Virus genome (UHGV): UHGV-1370141
DNA from: a virus
Reading direction: 5' to 3' (one strand)
DNA: 64,000 nucleotides
A program made the position numbers and the translations under genes. Positions 2,011 to 28,713 of this stretch are shown here, one piece after another. The notes under the pieces are model-generated. The model worked only from the letters and a program-made list of their open reading frames with translations, was not told where the DNA came from and searched no databases. Positions within the stretch are counted from its first letter, which is position 1, and each line of letters opens with the position of its first letter.

Positions 2011-2949
2011 ATGGAGTCACCTGCAATGGCGACCAATGCGGAACCAAAATTATCAGATCAGTTATTTGACAATCCAACAATATTAGCCGTTATTACTACA
2101 TCCAAATGTAATCTGGACTGTAGTTTCTGCGGCGGAGCCTATTACATGAATCGTGAAGATTCTTCTCGAGAGTTTCAACGTGACCGAATTATGGAGGCGT
2201 TAGAAGCTAACCCAACAATCACCGAGATTCAATGGACGGGTGGTGAGCCTTTGTTAGCCACTCGTAAAATTGAGGCGTTTGTTGACGAGTTAAAAGTAAT
2301 TCGTCCAGAGCTCAAACATCAGTTATATACCAACGGTTTAAAGATGCGTAAAACGCATCTCCCGTTGTTAAAACAATTTGATAATGTGTATGTTAGCATC
2401 GACGGGTTTGAGTTGTCTGAACGCCCTTTTAAGCGTTTTATTAACGATGGTTGCTACGAAGCTTTAGAAGTAATGCATGAGCTTGAAAATGTTCATACAT
2501 GGGCCGTTTTAACTCGAGAACAGTTGGGTAACAAACGGTGGCATGAAGACATTATTGAGCTTCATAATGCGATCTATCACTACGGTTATCGTACCATGAC
2601 GTTGCTGTTAGACGCGAATATGCCAAAACCGTTATCTCCCGATCACGTTATGAACTTTATTTACGGGTATTTTAGAATTCAGGAAAATATAGAAAGACTG
2701 AATGTTTCCAACTCGAAAAGGTGTGACTATGTCGTAAGCAAAGTTTTTGATGGTGGGTGTAACGTATGCAGCAATAGTTTATGGTTAAGAGCAGATGGAA
2801 CCGAATATCAGTTGCAAAATGCCCCGAGATTATTAGAATCGGGATGTAACCAATTAGCTTGTTCCATCGGGTTAGAAGCCTACGAGTATATTCGACGAGT
2901 GGTTATGGCCAACCGTAATAGTGGAGTATTAAATGAACCAAGAAAATAA
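2011..2949 (+). CDS. radical SAM enzyme (312 aa) with C-terminal auxiliary Cys cluster
   Basis: CxxxCxxC motif (TTSKCNLDCSFCGG) near N-terminus; C-terminal cysteines CDYVVSKVFDGGCNVCS...GCNQLAC. Confidence 0.8.
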   Translation: MESPAMATNAEPKLSDQLFDNPTILAVITTSKCNLDCSFCGGAYYMNREDSSREFQRDRIMEALEANPTITEIQWTGGEPLLATRKIEAFVDELKVIRPELKHQLYTNGLKMRKTHLPLLKQFDNVYVSIDGFELSERPFKRFINDGCYEALEVMHELENVHTWAVLTREQLGNKRWHEDIIELHNAIYHYGYRTMTLLLDANMPKPLSPDHVMNFIYGYFRIQENIERLNVSNSKRCDYVVSKVFDGGCNVCSNSLWLRADGTEYQLQNAPRLLESGCNQLACSIGLEAYEYIRRVVMANRNSGVLNEPRK

Positions 2950-4255
2950 TTACCCGAAACAGTTGACTTACCAGATTGTTACAAACTTGTCGTGTAATTT
3001 GGACTGTGAGTATTGTTACGAGCGTAAATATCCCCGCAATAACAAAGCAGCAGATATTGTAGATTTTCTTCATGCCTGTTTCGAGCGTGATAAAGATTTA
3101 CCAAACGTAGAAGTCGTCATTGACATTATCGGCGGCGAGCCGTTTATGCAGCCTAAGCTTCTAATGGCCGCTTTCGAAACAGCCGAGCAGTTGTGTGAAG
3201 AACATAAACGCCCGTTTATGTTTAGTATCTCTACTAATGGGACATTATTAGATAGGCCGTTGAACAGGGAAATTATTGAACGTTGGAAGGACAGACTTTC
3301 TATCGGGGTGTCTATTGATGGGTTACCTGAGTCGCACGATAAGTACCGTATTTTTACAACGAGTCGCGAAGGTTCTTACGAGGCCGCTGTACGTGGTTAC
3401 AATTATCTAAAAGAAGTAGGTATCGCGGAGCTTGGGGTTAAAGCGACATTTACTTTGGAAACGCTCCCACATTATGCGGCGGGTATGAAATCCCTAATCG
3501 ATTTGGCTGGAGGTGGAACCATTTCTGGTAACGTAACCTTCGAAGACATTATGCCACGGAGTATGGCTACGTCGATAGCGCTACAAATGATGGATGTAGT
3601 CGATTATTGGGTTGAAAAGGGTTTACACACCAACCCACGTAATACCCTATCACATATCATCCCGGAAGGGTTAGATTTCGACACTATCTGGGAACCGAAC
3701 TGGCGGGATCAGCTACTTTACAACGATACTGTACGTTTAAACCCGGAACGCTTGCGTCCGTTCTGCGGGACATTAACTCACATGACTTGTTTAGGGTTTG
3801 ACAGGAAGATTTTCGGTTGTAACCGTTTCATGTCGACTGTAACGTCACGTTCTGCGGTATTTGAGTTAGTCGGTCGTGAGTTTGTTAGCTTAGACGGTGG
3901 GAAACTGCTGGAAGAGATTCAGACGCAATACACCAACTATCCTGAGACGTGCTTAGGTTGTCCGATGAAACACGCTTGTGGTAGCTGTGCAGCAGCTTCC
4001 TACGAGAATGGGGAAGGGACGTTAGAAGACCGTAAAGCGTATCACGCTGAACGTCGTCAATGTGGTTGGACAACTGCAAAATTAATGGTCGCGGAATACT
4101 GGAAACAGAAGATGGGTACAACATCTGTGAAGGATTTCCACGATAATAGCATGTGTTACTGCCCTCGCTGTGTACGTGAACGTGCCCAAAAAGAAAAACA
4201 ATTGAGAGAAGCCAAAGATGAAGCCAATTCTGATCCACAATATTACGAAGCGTAA
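2933..4255 (+). CDS. radical SAM / SPASM-domain enzyme (440 aa), anSME-like maturase
   Basis: CNLDCEYC radical SAM motif; GGEP motif; C-terminal CLGCPMKHACGSC SPASM-type cluster; overlaps previous gene by 17 nt. Confidence 0.85.
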   Translation: MNQENNYPKQLTYQIVTNLSCNLDCEYCYERKYPRNNKAADIVDFLHACFERDKDLPNVEVVIDIIGGEPFMQPKLLMAAFETAEQLCEEHKRPFMFSISTNGTLLDRPLNREIIERWKDRLSIGVSIDGLPESHDKYRIFTTSREGSYEAAVRGYNYLKEVGIAELGVKATFTLETLPHYAAGMKSLIDLAGGGTISGNVTFEDIMPRSMATSIALQMMDVVDYWVEKGLHTNPRNTLSHIIPEGLDFDTIWEPNWRDQLLYNDTVRLNPERLRPFCGTLTHMTCLGFDRKIFGCNRFMSTVTSRSAVFELVGREFVSLDGGKLLEEIQTQYTNYPETCLGCPMKHACGSCAAASYENGEGTLEDRKAYHAERRQCGWTTAKLMVAEYWKQKMGTTSVKDFHDNSMCYCPRCVRERAQKEKQLREAKDEANSDPQYYEA

Positions 4256-8661: not shown

Positions 8662-9252
8662 TCATTTTACTAACCCCGCTTTTACCGCATAATCTGCCAT
8701 TTCTCTGAAGACGCGGCCGTACCAACCGTAGGTGTATTTCTCGTTTCTCTTACGTTTTTCGGAGATTTCCGTGTAGTAAGTTACTTGGTGCGAGATTAAC
8801 GCAAAGATTAAAATGCTCAACCCTTCATCTTTACGATATTTCAGGTAGGCGTTCAACGCACCCAGTGTCTTAGGACCCATACCGCCGTCGGTGTCAATAT
8901 CTGCGTAAAGTTTCCCTTCGTTATTTAAAACGTTGAGAATACGTTGTAACGATTTCACACAGTTAGCACGCCCTGCGTTAATACCAAAATCAAACATCCG
9001 GTCTGCGAGTAACGGTGAGATAGCGAAAATCTCATCAAGTTTGAGCTTCTTCCACCAACCGCGATCGTAAATATCAAACGCTTGTGCACGGGTGAGGTCT
9101 TTCATTTTCCCTGTGTAGCCGTATTCGCGTGCAGTAGTTAAAGTTACACCGTGACAGGTTTCTCCACCTTTGTCGTCAGGGTCGTTGACGTACCCGCCTT
9201 CTAAATCCGTTTTGGATTCAATAATACCTTCTTTAGTCCAACGTTCAGCCAT
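8662..9252 (-). CDS. GH108-family muramidase with peptidoglycan-binding domain (endolysin-like, 196 aa)
   Basis: EGGYVNDPDDKGGETCHGVT motif typical of glycoside hydrolase family 108. Confidence 0.7.
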   Translation of the reverse strand: MAERWTKEGIIESKTDLEGGYVNDPDDKGGETCHGVTLTTAREYGYTGKMKDLTRAQAFDIYDRGWWKKLKLDEIFAISPLLADRMFDFGINAGRANCVKSLQRILNVLNNEGKLYADIDTDGGMGPKTLGALNAYLKYRKDEGLSILIFALISHQVTYYTEISEKRKRNEKYTYGWYGRVFREMADYAVKAGLVK

Positions 9253-9315
9253 TTTCGTTCAACTCCTCTTTTACACAAAAAAGAAAAGAGGGTGGGGATT
9301 ACCCCCACCCTGTAA

Positions 9316-9795
9316 TTATTTTTTCTTCTTAGCGCGTGATGGCTTAGCTGGCGGTGTTTCAACAGCCGGTTTACGTGCAACACGCACTGTAAAACCACCA
9401 ACCCAGGTCAGACACTCAGGACGGAAGAAAATACCGTGTTCGATTGCGCTACCGTCCAACGGTAACTCACCAACCTGTTCTACCCATACATCGTCTTCTG
9501 TAAGGGTTAGGCTATACTGTTCGTTAATTACGGGCAGTAGGTCAGCGGTAGTCGTTGCAGACTCCACTAACAGTTTCGGTAATACGTTCAGGAAATACAA
9601 ACCTGCGTCAATGCGGTTATACTGGAACGTTTGTTCGTTAGTGTAACCGAGATTCTTAATTGACGCAACTGTGATTTCGGTATTGTACGTACCGGTGGTT
9701 ACGACCGGGTCACCCAGCGTGACTTTGGTGGTGTCGAACTCAGCGTCTGGGTTAGCCTTTTTAATAAGGTCGAAGATAGTTTCTTGATTGGTCAT
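9316..9795 (-). CDS. hypothetical protein with lysine-rich C-terminus (159 aa)
   Basis: ORF. Confidence 0.5.
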   Translation of the reverse strand: MTNQETIFDLIKKANPDAEFDTTKVTLGDPVVTTGTYNTEITVASIKNLGYTNEQTFQYNRIDAGLYFLNVLPKLLVESATTTADLLPVINEQYSLTLTEDDVWVEQVGELPLDGSAIEHGIFFRPECLTWVGGFTVRVARKPAVETPPAKPSRAKKKK

Positions 9796-9808
9796 TACTG
9801 TAATCCTC

Positions 9809-10657
9809 TTAATCTAAGAATCCCGGTAAGACCGGATTAGTCTGCGCTAATTCAATCTTCGACTTCGGACGATCGGTGCCGTTAAAGTGGATTAACAGAT
9901 TACCGGTCAGGTTAGAACACAGCGGGCTGAGCGTCAGCACCAACACACGCGTGAACTTCGTATTTGCGCCTTCGTAACCTGCGGTTGGACCATCGTAAAT
10001 AATCTTCGCACCATACAGGTTGTTAGCCGCGTTCTTAGGTACACTTACCCATTTCTCATCAACGACGTTAGCCAGTTTAGTGGCTAACTCAGCCAGGTCG
10101 ACGGTGTCGTTGATAGTAATCGGGTCAAGGTAATCTTTTTCTGCGGTGAAATCAATCGGGTGAGAATAAACCGCAGCGTTACCTTTCTTAGTAGACGGAT
10201 ACTCTACCAGATTCTCTAATTGAGTAACTGGTAACAGTTCAGTCAGGTCAATAGGATCACGCAGCGTAAGTGTTACTACACCGCACCACTCGTAAGATTT
10301 CTCGTTAGCGGTAAGCTGATGGGTTTCACCTTCAACTTTTGCGTCAACGATATCCGAGGGTAAAATATTTAGGTTGTATTTTGCGTTAATCGCATTAAGC
10401 AAATCCGATGCGGTTACCACACTGTCGTTACCGAACACCAACTCACCGGTTAGGTAGTCAGGTAAATTACGACGGTGGTAAGTCACGGTTAAAGTAGTAG
10501 ACTCATCGCCTTTGAGTTTAGAGGTCAGAACCACCTGGGTATCAACCCCAGTACCGGTAGGTTCTCCGATATCAACATCACTGAAAGTCAACGGTGGACT
10601 AATATTGTTTTCAGTGTTGATGAGTTTTAGCAGTTTCTGTTTTGACGTAAGAGACAT
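9809..10657 (-). CDS. hypothetical protein (282 aa)
   Basis: ORF. Confidence 0.5.
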   Translation of the reverse strand: MSLTSKQKLLKLINTENNISPPLTFSDVDIGEPTGTGVDTQVVLTSKLKGDESTTLTVTYHRRNLPDYLTGELVFGNDSVVTASDLLNAINAKYNLNILPSDIVDAKVEGETHQLTANEKSYEWCGVVTLTLRDPIDLTELLPVTQLENLVEYPSTKKGNAAVYSHPIDFTAEKDYLDPITINDTVDLAELATKLANVVDEKWVSVPKNAANNLYGAKIIYDGPTAGYEGANTKFTRVLVLTLSPLCSNLTGNLLIHFNGTDRPKSKIELAQTNPVLPGFLD

Positions 10658-12520: not shown

Positions 12521-12964
12521 TTATTCGTAGTTGTGCTTAAGGAACTCTAAAGCACGTTGGTCATTGGTTAATGCTACTGCCGACATTTTCTTTAAGGCTT
12601 GACGACAGTAAGCGTCACTCACAATACGTTGTTGCCAAGCATTGACAATTTCCGTAACGGTTTCTCCTTCTACAGCCGTATTGAGTTTATCGATAAAGTG
12701 ACGTCCCATCAGATACGCAACTGCGTAGTCCGTGAACATCTCTGTACCGAAATCACCGTCTGGGTAGTCAGCACGTTTCCGCACTGACATATCGGTAACG
12801 ATTTGATACGACGACTTCACCACTTCGTGGAATTTTTCTACCGTTAAGGTGTTAAGGTCCATACCCGATAAAGAGAGTGAAGCCAGTACCGGAATACTGG
12901 CTGGGTATTTACGAATGTAATCACGCAACTCTAATTTCAGTTCTTTGCTCATTGAACTCACCAC
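12521..12964 (-). CDS. hypothetical protein (147 aa)
   Basis: ORF. Confidence 0.5.
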   Translation of the reverse strand: MVSSMSKELKLELRDYIRKYPASIPVLASLSLSGMDLNTLTVEKFHEVVKSSYQIVTDMSVRKRADYPDGDFGTEMFTDYAVAYLMGRHFIDKLNTAVEGETVTEIVNAWQQRIVSDAYCRQALKKMSAVALTNDQRALEFLKHNYE

Positions 12965-13431
12965 TTATATTCAAACAAATAGCTGGAGAAAACATCGGCG
13001 AAATTTTCTAAATCATCGGTGTCAATCAAATCCAATCCTTTATTCAGAGATCCTAGCCATGTACCGTCGTAGCAAACTGCCATTACAGAATGGCGAACTT
13101 TTAGTTTACCGTCATTAGTAAATGAACGTTCACCGTTCTCGCCCGCCTCGTAGCGTTCCCCATTGTCAGCCAAGATAACCAGTTTGTCTAACGGGATGAA
13201 AGCGTCCATTACAACAAAGTCATAACGTGCAGTGACATGATTGTCGGTTACAGTTAAACGTTCAATAATGTAAAGGTTTGAATCACGTTTCAGCTCTTTG
13301 CTTTTTCTCCATCCATTCTTAATCAGCGAAAAAGCATCGCTTCTGCCAGTAAACAGATCTTTAATTTTATAGGTTTTTTCTACTGAATGGAAAGCGGCAT
13401 GAACGTTGCTGTTGATTTCTAAGCTAAACAT
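12958..13431 (-). CDS. hypothetical protein (157 aa)
   Basis: ORF. Confidence 0.5.
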   Translation of the reverse strand: MFSLEINSNVHAAFHSVEKTYKIKDLFTGRSDAFSLIKNGWRKSKELKRDSNLYIIERLTVTDNHVTARYDFVVMDAFIPLDKLVILADNGERYEAGENGERSFTNDGKLKVRHSVMAVCYDGTWLGSLNKGLDLIDTDDLENFADVFSSYLFEYKW

Positions 13432-17597: not shown

Positions 17598-17603
17598 AAA
17601 AAA

Positions 17604-17630
17604 GGTAGTAGGGGCTAAGCCCCTACTACC
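17604..17630 (-). terminator. stem-loop terminator
   Basis: Inverted repeat ggtagtagggg / cccctactacc with ctaa loop, downstream of gene 17637..18257. Confidence 0.6.
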
Positions 17631-17636
17631 TAAAAT

Positions 17637-18257
17637 TTATTTCATTCCGTTCTGAGAAAGTGTTGTCCCTGCAAGATGCTTAATAACGATCTTGACAGGC
17701 AAATTACTATTCTCGTACTGTACTTCGGTTTCAGACAAATCGGTGATATCGACAACTTTAGAAGGTACTTTCGCTAAGACAACCCGAATGGTGTGGGTTA
17801 TCGTACTGGCTGTGGTCTTTGTATTACTAATGTAGAAGTACGCATCAATAATACCGCCGTCTTCTGCCAGATAAACCAATTTATTTTCCAACAGACACTG
17901 GGTATAAATTGACACTCCAGATAATTGCGAAATCCCCAGTCTATTATTAACGTCAACTGTTGTTTTGCAGATTACCGCACCACCTGTCAACGTTTTTTCT
18001 ACCACCATATTTCCCGATAAGGTTTTTGCATCCATTTTTGGTACAATCGGATGAGTGCCGTCAACAAACAACCCATCGCTGTTAGACTTAAGGATGTTAT
18101 TCGCCGACGGACTCACTGTAACCTCGCCACCCCCTAATTTCTCAATCGGGAGTTGGTATTCAGTTTGTTCCTTAGACGCTAAGACTACTACACCCGTGAT
18201 GTCTTCTGAAAGTGTCTCCAGTTCATGAATGCGCACCTTTCCTACCAGTTCAGCCAT
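17637..18257 (-). CDS. short tail fibre protein with shared N-terminal anchor domain (206 aa)
   Basis: N-terminus MAELVGKVRIHELETL... homologous to N-termini of 20032..24513 and 27597..28058. Confidence 0.55.
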   Translation of the reverse strand: MAELVGKVRIHELETLSEDITGVVVLASKEQTEYQLPIEKLGGGEVTVSPSANNILKSNSDGLFVDGTHPIVPKMDAKTLSGNMVVEKTLTGGAVICKTTVDVNNRLGISQLSGVSIYTQCLLENKLVYLAEDGGIIDAYFYISNTKTTASTITHTIRVVLAKVPSKVVDITDLSETEVQYENSNLPVKIVIKHLAGTTLSQNGMK

Positions 18258-18772
18258 TAGTGGCCTCCGAATGTTAAGACACGGTTATCTGCGGTAACGA
18301 TTAAATCGTTGTCTTTTACTACAGCGGCTTCTTCATCGTTACCGAAAACCAGAACGGAGAATTGGCCTTTATAACCTAACGAGTTGGGTGAAACCTGTAA
18401 CGTTACAGCGTCTTTCCCTACGGTAAATGATTCGTCGGTAAGATCGTCGGGTTGTAAATTACAACCACAAGCCGCGTTAATTCCGTCGATTAGATCGTGT
18501 GCGGTAAAGCCATTACCGGAAACCTTTACCAGAATAGGTTGCTGGTTTAACCACCGCTCTGCGGTTAAACGGTTGTAATAAATCTGTAACGTTCTGTTGT
18601 CCGGACGTTTTATCTTTACAACAGCAGTGGTGTCACGATCCATTTCGTTACTGGTCTTTACGTCGCTGACTTCAACCTCGTTCTCTTGCAGGTCGAGCTG
18701 GAGGTCATGGTTAACCAGTGAAATAACCATGTTAAGTGAAGTTAACGACAAATCTGGCGTGAATTGTTCCAC
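18257..18772 (-). CDS. hypothetical fibre-associated protein (171 aa), paralog of 28024..28587
   Basis: N-terminus MEQFTPDLSLTSLNMVISLVNHD... matches 28024..28587; start codon is GTG at 18772 with AGGAGGT RBS. Confidence 0.55.
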   Translation of the reverse strand: MEQFTPDLSLTSLNMVISLVNHDLQLDLQENEVEVSDVKTSNEMDRDTTAVVKIKRPDNRTLQIYYNRLTAERWLNQQPILVKVSGNGFTAHDLIDGINAACGCNLQPDDLTDESFTVGKDAVTLQVSPNSLGYKGQFSVLVFGNDEEAAVVKDNDLIVTADNRVLTFGGH

Positions 18773-18870
18773 GTATGGTTACCTCCTATGATTGGGGAGA
18801 CGTAAAATGTTGGCTAAAAACATTTCACCCCCCCCCGATTACGTTTTCAAGCACACTCGCTTGAAAATTA

Positions 18871-19377
18871 TTAACTGATTTTGAAATCTCTTAACGTACC
18901 AGTTGATCTCATCACGTTTTGAAAAGCAGTGCTGATGTTATTAGTCCAGTAGTAATGCTGTCCGTTAATAACCTGCTGATAGGTCAGTGCGCAAGTGTTA
19001 CCGCCTAGATTTACAGTGATGTTAGAGGCCCTGCCGCCTTGTAAGTAAACCGCTAAACTAGGCCTTGCGTTGCCAACTACCGTCGTTAACTGTAATTCGA
19101 TACCTACTAAAGTTCCCACCCCGCAGTTACCCGCGTTTTGAATGGTCCCCTGATTTTTCTGGTTTAACGGCCAATTTGGTCCTACTGCGCCCCATTTCTT
19201 ACCTAAAGAATCTCTATATGCGGCAGTTGCAATTTTACAGCCCATAGATCTTCCCACCATTTGACTCATCATAAAAGGTCTACTCAATCCTAATTTACTA
19301 CCCGCAGCGCTCATCCACTGTTCGCCCGTTTCATTCCTAGCTGAAGATCCGACCCATCCTGACGCTACCCCCCCCAT
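18871..19377 (-). CDS. glycine-rich adhesin-like protein (168 aa)
   Basis: N-terminus GWVGSSARNETGEQWMS... paralogous to 19394..20032; located just downstream of long tail fibre gene. Confidence 0.5.
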   Translation of the reverse strand: MGGVASGWVGSSARNETGEQWMSAAGSKLGLSRPFMMSQMVGRSMGCKIATAAYRDSLGKKWGAVGPNWPLNQKNQGTIQNAGNCGVGTLVGIELQLTTVVGNARPSLAVYLQGGRASNITVNLGGNTCALTYQQVINGQHYYWTNNISTAFQNVMRSTGTLRDFKIS

Positions 19378-19393
19378 CTACCCTCCTTTTTAA

Positions 19394-20032
19394 TTAAACA
19401 CGTGAACCGTATATTGCACCTACTGCGTCCCATCTTGGCGCATTACCAGTAACAGCTTTACCAGCTGCTCCGCCGTTATATTCTGTACCGTTACCATGAG
19501 TATTACATCTTCCTCCAGCAGCACCGACATTACCACCCGAACCGCCTGTATATGCACTAAGAGACCCCTCACCAACAGATCCTCTACCAGGAGCGGAAAT
19601 AGTACCAGCAGCTGCACCGGAACTCATATGAGAGGAAGACCCACCAGCACCGCCTGGCGAGTTAGAACCACCGTTGCCTCCTCTGCCGTATACTGTAACC
19701 CCAGGATTGATGATGAGTGTAATATACGAATTTGGAAGATTGCTAGGGAATTCTAAACAAGGAACCCCGCTACTATAAGACACTAAATCCCCTGTAATGG
19801 TCACAACGACAGCAGTAGAGCCTAAAGAACGTAAATAGTTAATAAGAGTATCCTTATTATAGCTATGGTTAGCACCAATAGAATAATGGACCTCTTTTGA
19901 TTTTCCCGCCAATTGCGACATCCAGCCTGGAACCGGCACACCAAGTGTGCGCATCGCGCCAGACATCCATTCGTTACCAGCTTCAGCTTTTGCTGAAGAA
20001 CCAATCCAACCACCTACGCCGACAACTGCCAC
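19394..20032 (-). CDS. glycine-rich adhesin-like protein (212 aa)
   Basis: Gly-rich segments (GGNGGSNSPGGAGGSS...) separating other sequence, reminiscent of T2-type gp38 adhesins. Confidence 0.5.
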   Translation of the reverse strand: MAVVGVGGWIGSSAKAEAGNEWMSGAMRTLGVPVPGWMSQLAGKSKEVHYSIGANHSYNKDTLINYLRSLGSTAVVVTITGDLVSYSSGVPCLEFPSNLPNSYITLIINPGVTVYGRGGNGGSNSPGGAGGSSSHMSSGAAAGTISAPGRGSVGEGSLSAYTGGSGGNVGAAGGRCNTHGNGTEYNGGAAGKAVTGNAPRWDAVGAIYGSRV

Positions 20033-23000
20033 TAGGATCTCCCTTTGATTTCGTTAACCTCTTGACGCAACGCTTTCATACCCTCTACTAACAGCGCAAT
20101 AACGCCATTGTAGTTTAGACGTAAACGTTTTTCGCCTGAAATGGCATCATCATCCTCAGACACAAGTTCAGGTAACGCTTCTAATGCGTCTTGAGCAATT
20201 AGACCTACAGAAGTTTGCCAACCGTCATCCGGATGCTGAATTTCGTACAAATAACCAGTTAGTAACTCTAACCGATCCAAAGCCTTATCCAGCTTCACCA
20301 GATTACGTTTGTTACGACGGTCAGAACGAATCTGTACGTCGTTAAACGAACCGTTACCGCTGCCAGTAACGTTATGACCAAAGGTTACTTGGCCATTAGC
20401 GTTATTAAAATACAACGGACGTAGTCCGTTCCAGGAACCCGTTGCAGCTTGTCCGGCGTCGGTTACTAAGAAATAGGTATTGGCACCATCGTTACGTAAC
20501 ATAAAGCCGTAGTTGCCGTAAGCGATTCGAAAATCAGGGTACTTAGTGACCAATTTACCGTTAACGGTTAAATCGCCACCTATAGTACCGCCCCCTGACG
20601 GTAACGCACCGATGTCACCAGCGTTAGGTTTGTTGTGTGTGCTGTAAATCAGATAGACGGTACCGTCTGTTAGTCCTGCGGGTTTATTAGCCGTATAGCT
20701 TGGCGATGTGTGAATCGTTACGTTGGCATTACTAGTGTAGTCCCACTGAATATTAACACCGGTGGCGTAATTACCTATTTCAACATAAATATCGTAAGTG
20801 TCACCAGATGTATTCACCCATGCAAAATTAGTGAAGCCGACTGAGGTCAGTCGCCATAACGCACCAGTAATACCTTTTGGATTCCCATTTCCTGCACGCA
20901 GAACCAGCTCAGAGATACCTGCTTGATGCGGGGAACCAACGTTAAACCCTGCACCACCAATCAGGCTTATGTAAACCACGGAACTGGCTTGTGGCATCGT
21001 TACAGTTGCTAGTTTGAACCATCCGGCACCACCATTAAAAGACACAGTTGTTGTGTTCGCGGCACCAACATTTCGTAAGAATTTTCTCTTATCTGGAATA
21101 TCGGCACCGTTCTGTTTCTTCTGCAATGACCCACCGGCCAATTCTACAGTTTGGCCAAGATTTAAACTTTCAGCCGTTATTTCGATGTTTTTAGTGCCGT
21201 CAAACGCAATACCGTTGATGGTTCTTGCAGTTTGCAACTTTGTTGCAGTGGCCGCGTTTCCGGTGGTCGACTGATTACCCGTTTGGTTTACTCCAGGAAG
21301 ATTAACGTCTTTCGTCCCATCGAAAACCACACCACCGATCCTACGTCCTGTTTGTAACTTGGTAGCGGTTGCTGCATTACCTGTCGTATTCTGGTTGCCT
21401 TGCTGGTTAACCCCCGGTAAATTGATATCCCCAGTACCGTCAAAGGTAACGCCGCCGATTCTGCGAGCGGTTTTCAGTTTCGTCGCGGTAGCGGCGTTGC
21501 CGGTAGTATCTTGATTACCTGTGGTATTTACGCCAGGAATACTGTCACGGGCAGTATAAACTTGTGCCCAATCTGACCACGGCGCATCTGCCGTATCACG
21601 TCGACTACGAATATAAACTGGCGCGTGCGCACCACTCGTGCCCGACCAACCAATTAACAACTCGCCTTCGCCTAGCGCAGCAGAACCACCCAAATGCAGT
21701 AAGTTACCATAAGCGGTCGGATAACCGTTATTGTAAACTTCGTACATCTGAATACCAGGCGTACCTTTGTTTGAACCAGTCAGTGCAGTAACACGTCCAC
21801 GTCCTACCAACGTGTTGATATTGATGTCTCTAGACCCATCAAATTTCACACCGTTGATGTTTCGAGCCGTTTGTAATTTGGTTGCGGTTCCCGCGTTCCC
21901 AGAGGTGTTTTGATTACCTTGTTGGTTAACACCTGGGAGGTTAACGTCGCCGCTACCGTCGAAGGCGACCCCACCAATTCTACGTGCCGTCTTTAATTTA
22001 GTGGCGGTTGAAGCATTGCCTGTTAACTCACCTGCTAACCCTTTTGCAAAGGTCTGTTTTTCTGCCCAGGTGTGCGCTGCGTTCAATACAGGCATCTGGC
22101 GTGGCGTAATTGTTCGACTACCTTTCTCACCAGCGATACGAACAGCAAAGAAGCGATAGTTGGCAGTAGACACCGTACTACGCCAAACCAACATGCTCCG
22201 ACCGGTGCCGGTGTCATCAGACGGCCCTACAAGGATGTTAACTAAGTTACCGTCAATCACACCCCAATCCATTCCCGCAGGAATATTTTTCATGGTGTTC
22301 AACGGTGACGTTAACATCTGACCGGGAACGAAGTCGTAGGTTTGCCAGTCTAACGGGTCAACCTTAGCAGCTACACCACCAATGCCTAAAACTAACGGAA
22401 GTGAATACGAGGTGAAAACCTCTCGCCACCCACTCCAAATGTTACCCGTACGGATACGTTGGAATTTACGACCTTTAGTTTCTCTACCCGTGCCGTATGT
22501 GGTATAATTCTGTTCGACCCCTGTACCGTCTAAGCGTAAGGTAACTTCACAAACGCCTACCACGGTTTCGCTAGAAGAACCGATAAGTGGACCGTTAGTT
22601 GCCTCACCAGTGACACTGAAACGACCCGGTTTAACGAGATCGTTAAAATTGGCTTTAAAGAAAGCACCGTCAGTCTGATAACCAACCTGAATCCAATCTT
22701 CCCATTGTGGGTTTGATGAATCCCACGTTGCAGTCAAACCACGGACATACATTGTGCCACGACGCGTAGTGTATCGCTGCAACCGTCCGAAAAGACCACC
22801 TTCCATTACTTCTAGTACGCCTTGCGCGTTACCGCCTTCTTCAGGGTAATGCCGGTCGAACACCGCTAACGAACTGGACGAGTTCCGCCAGTTACCCATA
22901 TGCTCAGCGCCACCCAGAGAGTTCAAGTCTATAGAGGTAGACAGTGGGCGAACACCAGTGGTTACCATTCTCCACGGTGACCAGGGTCCATTAGTTCCGT

Positions 23001-24513
23001 TCCACACACCTGACAACATACGGTTGTACACGTTACCATTACGACAGGTAAAACGTTGCGCGCCACTGTAGTTGCCCGCTTTATACACTTCCAGATAACC
23101 GACTGCACCGTCTTCTGGGAAGTGTTTTGCCATCGACGCATTGGTTGATGTCGACTTAGACCACGTTCCTGTGTAATTAGCATCTGGAGCAAATGTGTTA
23201 ATATCAGCATCTACAGGCATTTCGCCACGGAAACGCAGGTAGGTATCAGGAGATAGGCCGATGTTGCGAGCAAAAGTTTCTTTATCTGGGATATCAGCGC
23301 CGTTAGAGTTTTTCTGTAACGCACCATTCGCTTTATCGACGGTAGTTTTCAAACCCAGGAAGTTAATGATATCCGCCGTCGACCCTTTCGCTAACAAATC
23401 GCGCGCAGTCGAGGTGAAATCCGCTAATCCCACCCGATTACTACCGGTAAAGTAAGGGAGTTTGTTTGCAGCGGTGGTGACTGCGGCAATCGCTGTCAGT
23501 AACGGACTTAACGGCTGTTTACCCGCGAGTTGGTTCGTTATCGTTGTCGCAAAGTTAGGATCGTTTCCTAACGCGGCTGCAATTTCTGATAACGTATCTA
23601 ACGTCTCGGGTGAAGAGTCCACTAATTCAGCAATCGCTTGCCGTACCCATGCCGTCGTTGAGACTGTCGTGTCGTTAGAATCCGCAGCAGGAGTCGGAGC
23701 TTTTACTACGCCAGTAAACGTCGGCGAGTGACGGTTTGCTTTTAACTGCAAATCATCATTTAACTGCTTAACCGTTGACGGTGTAGCCGCTTCCGTAACC
23801 GAGTCACTGGTTAAGGTATTATTAAGTTTAACGATACCTTTACTGGACGTTGTTGCATCAACGTTACCTTTTGCAGCGATTTCCTCTGCACGCTTAGCGG
23901 CTGCCTCAGAACGCGTTGCCGCATTCTCTGCGGTTTCTTTGTCTGAGGTAACTTGCGTTGCTGTAGCCTCTACAGAGGCTTTTGACGACTCTACTGACGC
24001 GACAGCTTCGTTAACTGCCGTAAGCGACTGTTCTACTTGACCGGCTTGTGTGGCAACAGTTTCTGCTTTCTTCGTAACGGTAGTCACCGCTTGTGTGACG
24101 TTGGCCTCGCTTGCCGCTACCGCTTGTGCTTTCTCATTAACGGACACAACCTGGGTATCTACCGCCGTTTTCGCGGCTAACACTTCAGTGTGTTTTGTAC
24201 CGACCTCAGTTGCTTTTTCGGTTACAGTTTGCGCTTGTTGAGCAACCGTAGCCGCAACGGTGTCAGTTTGTTGTTTTGCTGTTTCTGCTAAATTCTTTGC
24301 TTGTGTAGCCTGAGTTGCAGCTTCTTGTGATTGTGTTGCTGCTGCTTGTGCATCAGACACCGCATTACGCACGGTGTCAATATCTGCAACGATCTCACGG
24401 ACTGGTAACTTATAATCTTTCTCATCTTTGGAGAAAAGTAAAACACCTTCACCGATATCCCCGGTGTATGGACGTAAGTCGTGTAAACGAATTTTCTTTA
24501 CCGCTTTAGCCAT
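20032..24513 (-). CDS. long tail fibre protein (1493 aa) with C-terminal S74-type intramolecular chaperone domain
   Basis: N-terminal anchor domain; multiple repeats ...GNAATATKLQTARRIGGVxFDGTxDxNLPGVNQ...; C-terminus ...SDRRNKRNLVKLDKALDRLELLTGYLYEIQ... typical of self-cleaving chaperone. Confidence 0.85.
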   Translation of the reverse strand: MAKAVKKIRLHDLRPYTGDIGEGVLLFSKDEKDYKLPVREIVADIDTVRNAVSDAQAAATQSQEAATQATQAKNLAETAKQQTDTVAATVAQQAQTVTEKATEVGTKHTEVLAAKTAVDTQVVSVNEKAQAVAASEANVTQAVTTVTKKAETVATQAGQVEQSLTAVNEAVASVESSKASVEATATQVTSDKETAENAATRSEAAAKRAEEIAAKGNVDATTSSKGIVKLNNTLTSDSVTEAATPSTVKQLNDDLQLKANRHSPTFTGVVKAPTPAADSNDTTVSTTAWVRQAIAELVDSSPETLDTLSEIAAALGNDPNFATTITNQLAGKQPLSPLLTAIAAVTTAANKLPYFTGSNRVGLADFTSTARDLLAKGSTADIINFLGLKTTVDKANGALQKNSNGADIPDKETFARNIGLSPDTYLRFRGEMPVDADINTFAPDANYTGTWSKSTSTNASMAKHFPEDGAVGYLEVYKAGNYSGAQRFTCRNGNVYNRMLSGVWNGTNGPWSPWRMVTTGVRPLSTSIDLNSLGGAEHMGNWRNSSSSLAVFDRHYPEEGGNAQGVLEVMEGGLFGRLQRYTTRRGTMYVRGLTATWDSSNPQWEDWIQVGYQTDGAFFKANFNDLVKPGRFSVTGEATNGPLIGSSSETVVGVCEVTLRLDGTGVEQNYTTYGTGRETKGRKFQRIRTGNIWSGWREVFTSYSLPLVLGIGGVAAKVDPLDWQTYDFVPGQMLTSPLNTMKNIPAGMDWGVIDGNLVNILVGPSDDTGTGRSMLVWRSTVSTANYRFFAVRIAGEKGSRTITPRQMPVLNAAHTWAEKQTFAKGLAGELTGNASTATKLKTARRIGGVAFDGSGDVNLPGVNQQGNQNTSGNAGTATKLQTARNINGVKFDGSRDININTLVGRGRVTALTGSNKGTPGIQMYEVYNNGYPTAYGNLLHLGGSAALGEGELLIGWSGTSGAHAPVYIRSRRDTADAPWSDWAQVYTARDSIPGVNTTGNQDTTGNAATATKLKTARRIGGVTFDGTGDINLPGVNQQGNQNTTGNAATATKLQTGRRIGGVVFDGTKDVNLPGVNQTGNQSTTGNAATATKLQTARTINGIAFDGTKNIEITAESLNLGQTVELAGGSLQKKQNGADIPDKRKFLRNVGAANTTTVSFNGGAGWFKLATVTMPQASSVVYISLIGGAGFNVGSPHQAGISELVLRAGNGNPKGITGALWRLTSVGFTNFAWVNTSGDTYDIYVEIGNYATGVNIQWDYTSNANVTIHTSPSYTANKPAGLTDGTVYLIYSTHNKPNAGDIGALPSGGGTIGGDLTVNGKLVTKYPDFRIAYGNYGFMLRNDGANTYFLVTDAGQAATGSWNGLRPLYFNNANGQVTFGHNVTGSGNGSFNDVQIRSDRRNKRNLVKLDKALDRLELLTGYLYEIQHPDDGWQTSVGLIAQDALEALPELVSEDDDAISGEKRLRLNYNGVIALLVEGMKALRQEVNEIKGRS

Positions 24514-24547
24514 GATATTTAATTCTCTATCGGGAGCTAAAAGATCT

Positions 24548-24569
24548 GGGGGAGGTAAGCACCTCCCCC
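24548..24569. terminator. stem-loop between spike and fibre genes
   Basis: Perfect inverted repeat gggggaggt / acctccccc with aagc loop. Confidence 0.55.
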
Positions 24570-24590
24570 AACATTTTTATAAGCGGGTTA

Positions 24591-27500
24591 TTATTGCTCC
24601 GGTTTTAATGGAACATCTTCTACCGTTAACGTAACGTCTAAGGCCGCTTGACTGTGGTCAGTAATCGCTAAGTCACGATAAATATTAGCATTGGCTCCGT
24701 AGGTTTTATAAGTAACGTAGAGACCTAACGCACGTAGCACTTCCCCAGTGTAGAACCCATAAGCCATTCCGTTATCAGAAGACTCTCGAGCGGCTGGAGA
24801 CCACGCTCCATTAATCGGCTTATTCGGAATTGAGGTAATCGTAAACCCTTCACCTAACTCCTTAATTGCCGCATTAACCACTTTATCGTAGTTCGGATTC
24901 GTTGCACCGGCGAGTAATGCCCAGCAACACCCTGCTAACCACAACCCACACATATGTGCGGTGAAGTCGTTTTCCACCCAAACAGCTTTATCCGGTGCTG
25001 TAGGGAACTCGTTAGGAGTGTGGCCATTAAACCGATCCACAAACCCACCTAGCCAATTCACCCAGTTGTCAATATAGCTTGTTAACGCCTCGGGAACGTC
25101 TTTACCTCGCAGTTTCAGTTCGTACCAACAGCGACATGCGGCATGAAACGCACGAGGCTGATACCCTGCCCAAGGATGGTCATCACCCCAATGGAACGTC
25201 GTCCAGGTATCCGCTTCTCCGTAGCTGTAGTTGTCCCAACGGTTCCAGATATAAGCTGCACAACCAGGTCCTAATTCCCCAATTTGCTGTTGGTAAGCCA
25301 ACTGCGAATCGTACAGGAATTGAATCTGGTTATCTAACCACAGCTTATACCGGTCGTCTTTGTGGATACTGTACATAAACGGATACTGATAACCCGGATA
25401 AGGCATCCCGTGCCAAGCACCTAACTGTTCCGAACCTTCTAAGTAGCTGTTCGTGAACGGTATCGTACCCGGACAGTACGCTAACGAATCCAATCGGTAA
25501 TCTACAATCGTACAATCACCCACTTTTGCATCAAACTCTGCACCACCGCGTAAGGCAATACGGAAGGTTAAAATATAACCATCGTCTTTATTAAAGACCG
25601 GTGGAACATCGTTAACACAATAGTAAGCAAAGTGCGCATGGTCAACCGTAGAGTCAGGAAGAATCGTGACCTGATCCACCTTATCGAAATTCGGTGCTGA
25701 AGGTTTAGGGTCAGCGTCTGTGTGGTCTGGCTGATAACCGGAAAGTGTGGCTTCATCTGGATTCAACGTTACCTGACGCCATTCGTTGTTTGTGTTGGGT
25801 AACATCCACCACCAACGCCAGTTATCACTGTCGACTAAACGCAAGTTAAAATCTGCGTCTGCACGGTAAACAATAGAAACGGGTTTTACCTTCTCTTCAG
25901 CGGTTAACCAAAACCCGATAATAAACCCGGCACTGTCATCAGGAAATTCAGCTTCTACCACGGTACCCGCGCGACCATCGTAAATGCTATCCTCAAAACG
26001 TTCTTCCCATGTACAACCACCATAGTCCGAACACGCACGGGCTTCAGCTATCAGGTAGTCTCCCCCTTCTGGGGTGGTAATACGGGAAAGTTGGCCTAAG
26101 TCAATATCGTACTGTTTAACGGTATTTACCGTAGACCGAGGTAAGGTTAAACCGTACCAGTTTACTTCCTCGGTATCAGCTTTCGCAGGGTTAATGTTCA
26201 CCATCGCTTTACAGTAGACAGGATCGCCATTCTTACAAACTCCACCGTACGTGACACGAAGTTTGGAGTCTTTGTTAATCCTGAATCGAACCGCTTGCTG
26301 CTCCATAAAGTGTTGTACCGCTTCAGGCGCATGGATGGTAATGTCTCCATTCTCATCACGGCCGTAGGTAACACTTACGGTGTCCGGGTAATTGAAGTCG
26401 TACGAAATGCCATCCGTAAACGGTGTTTCCGCAGCGGTAGAACGACGGAAGAATTTATCTACCGCATCAATATACGTGTACTCGTGTGCTGTGTAGAAAG
26501 CACAGTCTAACGCTTGTTTGTATTTCTCTTCACCTGTTATACGCCACAGCAAATAACAGGCGTCGATAAACCACAGTTCAGCATCAGCGGCGTTACCGTA
26601 TTGGTTTTTCGACCCTAAGAACGGTGTGTGGACCGGACGGTTGTGCCACGGCTCATTACGTTTAAATTCGTAACCGCCGTGTTCGACGGGAAGTTTTACC
26701 GCGTAGTTAATTAAATAGACACCGTTTAACTGTGTGTCTTTTAACTGTACGGTACCTTTATCAGCGTCTGCTAATCCCGTCTCAATAATTTCACTATCCT
26801 GGATTTTGTTACCCGTCCAGGCAATTATCCAGTCAACGTCGTATTTAGGAGCTTTTGTTGCAGACCCGCCCCAAAGCGGGGTGTAACCTGTAGCATTATT
26901 TAGCAGTGTTGGCCAATCGACCCAAGCGATGCTTTCGTAAGGCTTATCAGGATTAGTAATAACGTGAGTTAAAACGTCTTCCCAATTAATCGACCCTTCT
27001 TTGTCTTCCTTGATAATCTGTACATCTGCGTTAATCGCGGCCCAGGCAGGGTGGCCACGATGTGCAAACGTACAGATATCCAAATACTCTCCCCAGAAAG
27101 GTGCACCGTGCGGTATCTTACATTGGCCATTTGTAAACCTTACAGGAACACATTTATACCCGCCGTTGGTAGGTTCCGTAGGGTGAATAGGATAGTGTGC
27201 TAATACCGGTTCTTTCCCGTTTACTAACCAGTTACAAATCCGACGCTGGGGTGTTGTCGGAATAGGCTGTCCGGCGTAGAAGTACGTGTTGTACGCATCC
27301 CAGGCGTGTTTCGCAGCATCTAACCATCTTTCGTCTTTTGTTGCGATATACATGTGGCAATAACCGATAATGTGTAACGACTGACCCTCGGTCGTTGCGT
27401 CACCATTCGGTTGGTATTCCGCCATGGTATCAGCGATGAAATGACGGTTATTCGACAGAACACCTTCTTCGTTTTGAATATAGTGTTCGTTGTGCGCGTC

Positions 27501-27596
27501 GTGAGTCGTTCCCGTATTCCGGGTAACGAAGGATTGGTGTCCGTAAGCTAACGATAACGCGTAGCTAATCGCGTGACGCTGAAAATGTTTTCTCAT
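24591..27596 (-). CDS. tail spike-like protein, possible polysaccharide-degrading receptor-binding protein (1001 aa)
   Basis: Very long ORF in fibre module; Trp/Tyr-rich C-terminal region; directly preceded in-frame by anchor-domain ORF. Confidence 0.55.
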   Translation of the reverse strand: MRKHFQRHAISYALSLAYGHQSFVTRNTGTTHDAHNEHYIQNEEGVLSNNRHFIADTMAEYQPNGDATTEGQSLHIIGYCHMYIATKDERWLDAAKHAWDAYNTYFYAGQPIPTTPQRRICNWLVNGKEPVLAHYPIHPTEPTNGGYKCVPVRFTNGQCKIPHGAPFWGEYLDICTFAHRGHPAWAAINADVQIIKEDKEGSINWEDVLTHVITNPDKPYESIAWVDWPTLLNNATGYTPLWGGSATKAPKYDVDWIIAWTGNKIQDSEIIETGLADADKGTVQLKDTQLNGVYLINYAVKLPVEHGGYEFKRNEPWHNRPVHTPFLGSKNQYGNAADAELWFIDACYLLWRITGEEKYKQALDCAFYTAHEYTYIDAVDKFFRRSTAAETPFTDGISYDFNYPDTVSVTYGRDENGDITIHAPEAVQHFMEQQAVRFRINKDSKLRVTYGGVCKNGDPVYCKAMVNINPAKADTEEVNWYGLTLPRSTVNTVKQYDIDLGQLSRITTPEGGDYLIAEARACSDYGGCTWEERFEDSIYDGRAGTVVEAEFPDDSAGFIIGFWLTAEEKVKPVSIVYRADADFNLRLVDSDNWRWWWMLPNTNNEWRQVTLNPDEATLSGYQPDHTDADPKPSAPNFDKVDQVTILPDSTVDHAHFAYYCVNDVPPVFNKDDGYILTFRIALRGGAEFDAKVGDCTIVDYRLDSLAYCPGTIPFTNSYLEGSEQLGAWHGMPYPGYQYPFMYSIHKDDRYKLWLDNQIQFLYDSQLAYQQQIGELGPGCAAYIWNRWDNYSYGEADTWTTFHWGDDHPWAGYQPRAFHAACRCWYELKLRGKDVPEALTSYIDNWVNWLGGFVDRFNGHTPNEFPTAPDKAVWVENDFTAHMCGLWLAGCCWALLAGATNPNYDKVVNAAIKELGEGFTITSIPNKPINGAWSPAARESSDNGMAYGFYTGEVLRALGLYVTYKTYGANANIYRDLAITDHSQAALDVTLTVEDVPLKPEQ

Positions 27597-28058
27597 TTAG
27601 TAACCCGCTGCAAGAAGAGAACCTTTCCAGGTGGCACCCCCATCAAGGGTATAAAGCGACAGAGTGTCTTCCGCATTTGCCGCGTAGGATAAAACCGGTT
27701 GTGCACCGTGAGGCCATTTAACGTTTTCAGGCCAGGTTACTTTATTCGCCCCTGTTCCTTGCTTAATCGTTAGCATTACTTCGAAACGGGTATTTTCTGC
27801 AACGTTGGTAAGGGCTGCGAACGTCACTGTAGTGTTAGGATCGTTTAACACCAGAATAATGTCAGTGCTGGTATTGAAATCCAACGTGGCGGCATTATTC
27901 GAACCGTTAACCGTGGTGACTGTCGCAACCGGGGCTAACTTATCAACATCAATTTTATATTCTTTATTGTCTTTGCTATACAGCAGTACCCCGCCTTGGG
28001 GTGTGCCTGCGTAGCTTTCGAGCTCATGGAGTCTCGTCTTCTTCAGTGCTGTCGCCAT
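27597..28058 (-). CDS. tail fibre N-terminal anchor-domain protein (154 aa from MATALKK start)
   Basis: MATALKKTRLHELESYAG... homologous to N-termini of 20032..24513 and 17637..18257; stop TAA is immediately followed in frame by ATG of 24591..27596. Confidence 0.55.
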   Translation of the reverse strand: MATALKKTRLHELESYAGTPQGGVLLYSKDNKEYKIDVDKLAPVATVTTVNGSNNAATLDFNTSTDIILVLNDPNTTVTFAALTNVAENTRFEVMLTIKQGTGANKVTWPENVKWPHGAQPVLSYAANAEDTLSLYTLDGGATWKGSLLAAGY

Positions 28059-28587
28059 CTGGAACCTCAAATGTAAGAACGGCATCGTCACCAATACAGA
28101 AGATTGCATCTTCTTCGTTTGCTAATGCCCGTTCGGTTGTATCAAACAACGTCACCATAAACGCGTTCATCCACGCAGGAGAATCGTCGGCAACGTTAAC
28201 GGAAATGGGATCGTTACCTAAAGTGATATCTGAAGCACGTAAATCCTCGGGTTGTAAGTTCGTTCCGCAGAATTCATTTACAACACTAAGAATGTCACGA
28301 ACGTTGTCTTCAGTACCGTCTAACGAAATCAGAATGGGTTCATACGTTAATACTTCATCTGCGTCGAGTCTGTCGTAGTAAACCACAACAGACGCGCCAT
28401 CCGGTTTTCTGATTTTACTGATTTCGGTAATGGTGTTACGACGCGAAGTTGTTGGGGATGGGTTTGTTACAGTTCCGCTAATACGGATTTCGTTTAGTGT
28501 AAGCTGTAACCCGTTATCATGATTGATTAAAGCGACCACTAGCTCTGCTGAGGTCAGACTCAAATCAGGTACGTATGGTGTGGCCAC
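28024..28587 (-). CDS. hypothetical fibre-associated protein (187 aa), paralog of 18257..18772
   Basis: MATPYVPDLSLTSAELVVALINHD... ; overlaps start of 27597..28058. Confidence 0.5.
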   Translation of the reverse strand: MATPYVPDLSLTSAELVVALINHDNGLQLTLNEIRISGTVTNPSPTTSRRNTITEISKIRKPDGASVVVYYDRLDADEVLTYEPILISLDGTEDNVRDILSVVNEFCGTNLQPEDLRASDITLGNDPISVNVADDSPAWMNAFMVTLFDTTERALANEEDAIFCIGDDAVLTFEVPDGDSTEEDETP

Positions 28588-28713
28588 TTAACCCTCCGAG
28601 ATCAAAAAAAATAAAACACCTACCGCCCATAGAATCGGGCGGTAGGAGACTATTCTGTAGTTAAAAATCAAGAACGATTAGTGATTTTTTTCGGAAGATT
28701 TCGATAGAATTTT

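Follow-up and report, generated by a model that had tools for sequence, protein, structure and literature searches.

A probable variable receptor-binding locus with a shared N-terminal handle in a Seoulvirus-like jumbo phage

A stretch of 64,000 nucleotides (nt) of the virus genome UHGV-1370141, referred to as the window, was analysed with respect to a minus-strand locus running from position 28646 to 17603. This is probably a variable receptor-binding locus, in which a shared N-terminal handle of ~42 amino acids (aa) would serve as the common virion-attachment module of a set of recognition proteins, the distal parts behind it having been exchanged, and in which the genes are ordered in arrays headed by a short gene of the DUF7941 family. 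All eight genes of the locus were found at the coordinates of the initial annotation (Table 1). The handle is carried by a protein of 153 aa (listed previously with 154 aa), by a long fibre of 1493 aa and by a short protein of 206 aa. Recombination would install differing distal parts behind the handle; a single virion would be equipped with several kinds of recognition device simultaneously, and the host specificity of the lineage would shift as cassettes are exchanged. At the fibre tip, alternative gp38-type caps would add another tier of exchange.

The common N-terminus of the three proteins, proposed in the initial annotation, was confirmed by pairwise BLASTP alignment. The fibre and the 153-aa protein were 52% identical over 50 aa (E 8e-12), the 206-aa and 153-aa proteins 40% over 42 aa (E 2e-8) and the fibre and the 206-aa protein 39% over 41 aa (E 7e-8). 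The similarity ends at approximately residue 42-46 in the three copies, and the invariant residues (n = 11) are M1, A2, K7, R9, H11, L13, V24, L26, S28, K29 and Y34. The handle consists of a basic lead, which is probably disordered, an R-[LIV]-H-[EDNQ]-L motif and a beta-hairpin. The motif was not matched in any other open reading frame of the window, and a Pfam scan gave no model for it.

A hidden Markov model (HMM) built from the three window copies was searched against 1.84e9 representative proteins with a cut-off of E<=1e-3. Matches were found in 19 clusters and were N-terminal (residues 1-46) in 17 of these; the two weakest were a scrambled-looking 124-aa sequence and an internal match at E 2e-4. 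Since only 19 clusters were hit and 17 of them matched from residue 1, the handle is, judged by its sequence, a specific module tied to one position, as opposed to an artefact of composition. The carriers were 133, 154-156, 188, 205, 259, 273, 706, 710 and 1494 aa long, and the parts behind the handle bore no relation to one another, ranging from small knobs and long fibres to a SASA esterase with DUF6645 and an immunoglobulin (Ig)/beta-propeller protein. Both the representative-protein search and the phage records placed the handle in Seoulvirus-like phages only. Its presence on the long fibre gp90 of phage Goslar was considered and rejected, the N-terminus of gp90 being different by eye and the profile search having matched Seoulvirus-like proteins only.

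The handle copies are old, because their DNA shows only ~67% mean column identity and no long identical runs, which also argues against recent duplication of, or recombination between, the copies. The handle is more strongly conserved as protein than as DNA. Among relatives approximately five handle subtypes were distinguished, each keeping its own sequence, and the fibre handle was nearly invariant. One and the same subtype carries different distal domains, for instance the 706-aa esterase or the 710-aa Ig/propeller protein. Duplication of a two-gene cassette, as previously proposed, holds for the DUF7941 gene and the 42-aa handle, but does not extend to the distal parts of the short proteins, which are unrelated.

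The loci of relatives with 84-96% nt identity in the flanking genes differed in content. The simplest order, a short DUF7941 gene followed by a handle gene (156-158 aa) and the tail protein gene, was found in SPN3US, Proteus phage 7 and Erwinia phage pEa_SNUABM_29, and locus L018 showed a short DUF7941 gene and a 188-aa handle protein. The window shares with L004 and L005 the order DUF7941-A, 153-aa handle protein, tail protein, handle fibre, two gp38-type genes, DUF7941-B and 206-aa handle protein, with variation in fibre tips and gp38 lengths. In L008, L009 and L012 the order was DUF7941-A, 153-aa protein, tail protein, handle fibre (1385 aa), 273-aa handle protein, DUF4376 protein, DUF7941-B, 205-aa and 710-aa handle proteins and a further DUF4376 protein. 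L011 contained DUF7941-A, the handle fibre and two Gp38_N proteins, and continued from the 273-aa handle protein onwards as L008 does. In L016 and L017, DUF7941-A, a handle fibre of 1497 aa and two Gp38_N proteins were followed by DUF7941-B and a 706-aa handle protein with a SASA esterase. The first array thus occurs with or without the pair of the 153-aa and hydrolase-like proteins, in some relatives the gp38 genes are replaced by the 273-aa handle protein and DUF4376, and the second array holds the 206-aa protein, the 205-aa protein (with another C-terminal domain) plus the 710-aa protein and DUF4376, or the 706-aa handle-esterase.

The breakpoint in the fibre relative to these loci lies at approximately aa 1050-1110 (approximately window 21185-21355), beyond which the tips diverge, and a further breakpoint was located ~70 residues into the 206-aa gene. 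Comparison of the loci showed, at the level of sequence, that close relatives keep the handles and the DUF7941 genes and exchange the distal parts, and the exchangeable modules envisaged in the initial annotation are in line with this. Its term "switchable" for the host range is unsupported: neither an invertase nor a diversity-generating retroelement nor any other means of switching was seen in the locus, although no search aimed at such devices was made. A protein of ~185 aa with DUF4376 was encoded after each 273-aa and 710-aa handle gene (L011 8836..9390 and 12797..13357; L008 18567..19121), and the window contains none; from its position it may assist fibre assembly as a chaperone.

The number of handle proteins per locus varied from 1 (SPN3US) to 5, with 3 in the window. 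The assumption that each anchor has its own partner was wrong, because the number of handles differs from that of DUF7941 partners (3:2 in the window and 5:2 in L012). What was constant was the order, a short DUF7941 gene being located directly before the first handle gene of the array in every locus that could be read through its upstream side (approximately six architectures, including SPN3US and an Erwinia phage).

The 206-aa protein consists of the handle and a distal domain of ~160 aa that matches phrog_33169 (E 5e-29) at profile positions 684-841 of 842, and would be a short fibre or knob. This match to only the last part of a long profile is as expected after an internal deletion, and the short handle proteins could on that account be decaying remnants of longer fibres, their similarity being without present function. 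Such decay is extremely improbable: intact 206-aa orthologues with 90-97% identity were present on many independent contigs of 170-225 kb, handle-protein clusters had up to 339 members, the SPN3US orthologue of the 153-aa protein was detected in virions, the short handle genes have Shine-Dalgarno-like sequences and coupled starts, and the handle is conserved as protein beyond its DNA. Single-sequence searches of the PDB with the 206-aa and 710-aa proteins gave nothing significant.

The 1493-aa fibre contained the Pfam domains Phage_fiber_2, Gp34_trimer and Peptidase_S74, and its matches to PDB sequences were the P1/Mu-type fibre S, T4 gp34 and, at the C-terminus, the S16 gp37 tip (6f45). An Ala/Gln/Thr-rich segment between the handle and the fibre repeats is suggestive of a coiled coil. 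The S74 chaperone domain opens at aa 1397 with SDRRNK (S-D-x-R-x-K), the Ser1397 codon being located at window 20323..20325, and we take this motif to be the Ser-Lys catalytic dyad of the S74 family. If it is the cleavage site, the predicted self-cleavage would cut off the final ~97 residues and uncover a gp38-capped tip, which is the situation in phage S16. In the match to the gp37 tip, the Ser-Lys motif of S74 and the location of a protein with Gp38_N and GP38 in the next gene, the fibre is the same as the S16/T2-type tip. It differs in that S16 and T2 have one gp38, whereas the window has two gp38-type genes with different distal domains behind a chimallivirus fibre with another N-terminus. 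A long trimeric fibre would be formed, its S16/T2-type tip probably exposed by self-cleavage, with one or the other of the two gp38-type adhesins then serving as the cap.

Adhesin 1 matched Pfam GP38 (E 5e-45), the glycine-rich receptor-binding domain, and Gp38_N (PF21721, E 3.8e-14). Adhesin 2 also matched Gp38_N (E 9.6e-19) and has a different distal domain (phrog_1121 'tail fiber adhesin' and phrog_33139), the glycine-rich domain (PF05268) being present in adhesin 1 only. The two are 53% identical over the first 38 aa only. We infer that they are alternatives on one fibre. The tandem gp38-type genes (18871..20032, minus strand) would make up a second, tip-level layer of alternative receptor binding, and two such genes were also found in L004, L005, L011 and L016.

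The fibre and adhesin region contained sequences resembling those of other phage groups. The 3' part of the adhesin 1 gene (19392..19652) was 85-92% identical in nt to gp38 of the Krischvirus phages RB49, JSE and Phi1, and a distal segment of the fibre gene (20603..21128) was 81-85% identical to Yersinia phages vB_YpM_5, 6 and 39. Adhesin 2 had 56-60% aa identity to the 'gp38' adhesins of Stx phages and of E. coli phage CMS-2020a, the latter matching a wider stretch of the region at ~89%; its distal domain is also present in the "gp38" adhesins of Stx phages and of the T4-like phage PEi20. These similarities suggest that a chimallivirus and unrelated phage groups, T4-like phages included, have recently exchanged adhesin modules.

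The 153-aa protein (phrog_9017, E 1e-38) is an orthologue of SPN3US gp123, and the handle-less 1001-aa protein behind it (phrog_2871 'tail protein', E 0) of SPN3US gp124. The latter had 77% aa identity to the tail-associated protein of phage Asesino. Its label 'hydrolase-like' derives from depositor annotations of homologues and from the Goslar preprint; the match to glycoside hydrolase family GH76 was below threshold (18.3 bits; cut-off 25.9) and no PDB sequence was matched. The structure of the 153-aa protein was predicted with AlphaFold2 (AF2) at a mean predicted local distance difference test score (pLDDT) of 80. In this prediction, of a kind suggested for the anchor in the initial annotation, a beta-hairpin was obtained at residues 24-37 in front of a confident beta-sandwich (residues 47-153), and residues 1-17 were of low confidence. 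In a structure search of the BFVD the beta-sandwich matched the C-termini of many phage fibre proteins, while Foldseek of the model against the PDB returned no hit at E<=0.001 and single-sequence PDB searches with the 153-aa and 1001-aa proteins gave nothing significant.

Of the phage records, 523 contained the C-terminal domain of the 153-aa protein and 539 the 1001-aa protein, in nearly the same set of phages. By host genus the counts (domain/1001-aa protein) were almost equal, among others 240/242 for Escherichia, 99/101 for Salmonella, 61/62 for Vibrio and 33/33 for Erwinia. The two genes were adjacent in all four pairs checked (PHB05, Schickermooser, Vibrio phage K414 and SPFM22). They belong to the 'phi92 gp140-like' pair of a small protein and a ~1000-aa tail protein found in many myoviruses, whose names suggest rV5-, phi92-, PVP-SE1- and Felix O1-like groups as well as Vibrio phages; the region N-terminal to the common domain varies between phages and is the handle only in the Seoulvirus-like ones. 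Goslar lacks a protein of the 153-aa type, and its gp92 is the homologous tail protein fused to a full DUF7941 module. In wild-type SPN3US virions both gp123 and gp124 were present, with normalised abundances (SC/M) of 0.42 and 0.64, and neither was flagged "Head". On account of this co-occurrence and adjacency, the Goslar fusion and the similar abundances in the virion, the 153-aa protein is most likely an adaptor or small subunit that tethers the 1001-aa protein to the virion via the handle. Of the several distinct fibres or spikes proposed for this region, the long fibre with its two adhesins, the hydrolase-like tail protein and knobs are supported, and the 153-aa protein is better explained as an adaptor than as a device of its own.

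DUF7941-A and DUF7941-B, which head the two arrays, are paralogous, as had been noticed in the initial annotation (36% identity over 169 aa, E 5e-36). Both matched Pfam PF25613 (gathering cut-off 27 bits), DUF7941-A with 72 bits (E 7.5e-20) at profile positions 3-153 of 276 and DUF7941-B with 62 bits (E 6.9e-17). They cover the N-terminal globular domain only (profile positions 3-153/166), and the proteins end 20-35 residues past it. The linker and C-terminal globular domain of the Goslar gp22 type, which are associated with head-to-tail polymerisation, were not found in either protein with the Pfam profile. That the handle might be this missing linker and C-terminal domain in detached form, as after the splitting of a gene, was rejected by hhalign (probability 0.15%; 0.3% for the whole 153-aa family).

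Three further DUF7941 paralogs are encoded in the window, of which the 282-aa protein alone among the five covers the whole profile; together with its 159-aa neighbour (9316..10657) it is a candidate for a scaffold protein. An endolysin gene (GH108 and a peptidoglycan-binding domain; 8662..9252, minus strand) adjoins this pair downstream, and the same synteny as in window 8662..10657 is found in PhiKZ, where gp143 (DUF7941) lies beside gp144 (endolysin). In the Chimalliviridae the family is represented by Goslar gp22, gp23, gp86, gp91, gp92, gp93 and gp161, by PhiKZ gp126, gp127 and gp143 and by 'paralog family B' of SPN3US (~20 members), the last identified as DUF7941 in this analysis. Eight consecutive family B genes (gps 138-145) occupy 115393..122930 in SPN3US (L015), compared with only two in the window beside the endolysin gene.

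A search of PDB sequences with the DUF7941 profile reached PhiKZ gp127 (9xqd_0, E 2.5e-9; profile 14-154 to chain 15-161), which was reached by the profile only, the single-sequence PDB search with the DUF7941 partner giving nothing significant. The homology is to the N-terminal domain of gp127. PhiKZ gp127 was modelled into a cryo-EM map, in which it forms the end of the gp139 band on the outer peripheral baseplate (PMC13250141). The AF2 model of DUF7941-B (mean pLDDT 56) was too poor for a fold search and was not used. According to the Goslar preprint (10.64898/2026.04.21.720040), DUF7941 is specific to chimalliviruses, gp22 self-assembles into filaments, and the linker of one protomer is predicted to dock on the N-terminal domain of the next in a head-to-tail manner, oligomerisation being predicted also for the short form gp23. 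A baseplate-anchored "fibre cloud" is proposed there, in which part of the members carry fused carbohydrate-active domains. The short DUF7941 gp91 of Goslar precedes the long fibre gene, an order resembling that of the window. The fusion of tail protein and DUF7941 in Goslar gp92 differs from the arrangement in the window, where the recognition proteins are unfused and carry a handle unrelated to DUF7941.

Several observations weigh against the explanation proposed above. Paralog family B of SPN3US was placed in the head by the authors of that study, since it persists in a tailless mutant (PMC5694885); PhiKZ and Goslar indicate the baseplate instead, so that the published placements of DUF7941 disagree. 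SPN3US gp122, the orthologue of the heading short DUF7941, had 0 spectral counts in the wild type and 5 in one mutant preparation, and the short Goslar gp91 (L003 11975..12502) was present in ~1.2 copies per virion versus ~43 of the fibre gp90. This near-absence from virions argues against a stoichiometric adaptor; the short protein could instead act as a loader or chaperone, or the handle could dock on other members of the family. The handle alone was predicted by AF2 with low to moderate confidence. Finally, many long fibres likewise end in the beta-sandwich domain of the 153-aa protein, so this protein could be a receptor-binding knob instead of an adaptor.

The handle would be an attachment domain with a common docking site, and both the fusion in Goslar and the order of the genes suggest the DUF7941 system as the place to search for that site. 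One possibility, real if doubtful, is that short DUF7941 is a stoichiometric structural adaptor on the outer baseplate, like PhiKZ gp127, and that the downstream handle docks directly on it. The invariant DUF7941-first order with its translational coupling, the homology to gp127 and, as a Rosetta-stone argument, the fusion of Goslar DUF7941 to the same hydrolase-like protein are consistent with such an adaptor, as is the proposal of DUF7941 modules carrying recognition domains in the Goslar preprint (10.64898/2026.04.21.720040). Against this stand the copy number of gp91 in Goslar and the failure to detect gp122 in wild-type SPN3US virions although the smaller gp123 was detected. Moreover, only two local partners are available for three to five handle proteins, and the fibre encoded after gp91 in Goslar has an N-terminus other than the handle.

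The conserved adjacency could be reconciled with the near-absence of the orthologues from virions if short DUF7941, as a paralog of a structural DUF7941 docking surface, were a non-structural assembly factor, which holds or delivers the handle and is then released, the dock being abundant full-length DUF7941 or another baseplate protein. The short forms indeed lack the linker and C-terminal domain that are tied to polymerisation in the Goslar preprint. We consider this rather unlikely, as the argument is one of inference throughout, mass spectrometry readily overlooks small proteins and a chaperone role was not found in the portions of the DUF7941 literature available. A more specific form, in which the short DUF7941 proteins are dedicated loaders that hand handle-bearing fibres and enzymes onto a DUF7941 scaffold, be it the 'filament cloud' proposed for Goslar or the outer baseplate, is unlikely.

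The handles may alternatively bind one another and form the hetero-oligomeric root of a branched fibre. A precedent exists in the same virus family: gp131, gp133, gp134 and gp135 of PhiKZ are paralogous fibres attached to the outer baseplate through a common N-terminal region, their C-terminal, host-facing domains being different (PMC13250141), and such a root has been proposed for them. The five or so individually conserved handle subtypes would be expected for distinct positions in a complex. The design of a shared N-terminus with different distal parts is the same as in the window, but the PhiKZ region is ~200 aa long and forms a six-helix-bundle hetero-hexamer, compared with ~42 aa for the handle, and homology between the two was rejected by hhalign (probability 0.1%, E 0.5). 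A number of handle proteins that varies from 1 to 5 would also be hardly tolerable for a fixed hetero-oligomer, and the probability of such a root is regarded as low. In SPN3US the gp131 homologues (gp168-170) are separate from, and additional to, the gp122-124 module. In the explanation preferred here, a shared attachment handle with exchanged distal parts behind it, every array of handle genes begins with a short DUF7941 paralog, to which its translation would be coupled.

The arrangement of the genes is given in Table 1. The genes for DUF7941-A and the 153-aa protein overlap by 35 nt, the latter abuts the 1001-aa gene without a gap, and overlaps of 1 nt were found between the fibre stop codon and the adhesin 1 gene and between the DUF7941-B and 206-aa genes. 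Fewer matches to sigma-70-type promoters were obtained than in shuffled sequence, a scan that is uninformative because the phage encodes its own RNA polymerases.

Table 1. Position of the genes and other features of the locus and of further DUF7941 paralogs in the window.
Feature	Position	Strand	Remarks
DUF7941-A, 187 aa	28024..28587	-	First gene transcribed; heads the first handle-gene array
153-aa handle protein	27597..28058	-	Second in transcription order; ATG at 28058
1001-aa hydrolase-like tail protein	24591..27596	-	Third; without handle
1493-aa long fibre	20032..24513	-	Fourth
gp38-type adhesin 1, 212 aa	19394..20032	-	Fifth
gp38-type adhesin 2, 168 aa	18871..19377	-	Sixth
DUF7941-B, 171 aa	18257..18772	-	Seventh; heads the second handle-gene array
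206-aa short handle protein	17637..18257	-	Eighth and last
Handle of the 153-aa protein	27933..28058	-	aa 1-42
Handle of the 1493-aa fibre	24388..24513	-	aa 1-42
Handle of the 206-aa protein	18132..18257	-	aa 1-42
S74 chaperone domain of the fibre	20035..20325	-	aa 1397-1493; PF13884 E 3e-10 at aa 1397-1451
Terminator-like hairpin	28619..28646	-	11 bp stem and T-run; just upstream of the locus
Terminator-like hairpin	24546..24571	-	Between the 1001-aa gene and the fibre gene
Terminator-like hairpin	17603..17631	-	13 bp stem; 6 nt past the 206-aa gene, closes the locus
DUF7941 paralog, 282 aa, full length	9809..10657	-	PF25613 E 2.6e-52, profile 5-275
DUF7941 paralog, 159 aa, short	9316..9795	-	PF25613 E 3.9e-28
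Fifth DUF7941 paralog, 184 aa, short form	49550..50104	-	PF25613 E 7e-14

The window was assigned by sequence comparison to a Seoulvirus/SPN3US-like jumbo phage (Chimalliviridae, nucleus-forming type) of enteric hosts. Its conserved structural genes had ~74% nt identity to Erwinia phages Asesino and phiEaH2 and Salmonella phage SPN3US, and the major capsid protein at most 80% aa identity to the same phages, by which the phage is Seoulvirus-like without a close isolate in the phage collection. Near-identical loci were present on 222-227 kb contigs from metagenomes and from assemblies labelled Salmonella, Shigella, E. coli and Enterobacter. The lineage of the window, L004, L011 and L016 recurs in many such enteric-labelled assemblies, and the phage collection contained no isolate covering it; it may represent a common jumbo phage that accompanies enteric isolates but has itself escaped isolation. 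For broad-host-range Enterobacter jumbo phages, among which 'Sa' (223 kb) is reported to have Cronobacter phage CR5 as its nearest relative, a connection to the window was not established (10.1101/2024.10.29.620934). Apart from the locus and unrelated to it, a radical-SAM domain protein (phrog_1802, E 3.5e-115) is encoded at 2933..4255, within a block of plus-strand genes at the window's left end.

Conserved N-terminal anchors or small adaptors with exchangeable distal domains are found in TSP1-4 of CBA120, in gp63.1 and gp66 of G7C, in phi92 and in the Klebsiella jumbo phages RaK2 and phiKp24. None of these has a sequence relationship to the handle of the window, and the T4 gp10-like XD anchors are far longer. 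The principle of an anchor with exchangeable tips is thus well established, and the locus extends it with a previously undescribed handle; in the parts of the published accounts of DUF7941 that were available, neither the handle nor the DUF7941-first gene order was found described.

Nucleus-forming jumbo phages are attractive for therapy since their DNA is shielded from many host defences, and their host recognition is poorly known, the outer baseplate and fibres being still largely unmodelled in both published chimallivirus structures. A short DUF7941 gene followed by genes starting with the handle is a compact rule for finding the host-recognition genes of Seoulvirus-like phages, and the relatives with swapped distal parts make up a natural series. 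The sequence of the locus also shows that adhesin modules have recently passed from T4-like phages to a chimallivirus. For engineering new specificities the handle is a short candidate tag. Should the short DUF7941 proteins act as loaders, the DUF7941 scaffold would be a programmable rack displaying any protein fitted with the 42-residue handle, and host-range engineering of nucleus-forming jumbo phages would then amount to fusing a binding domain to it.

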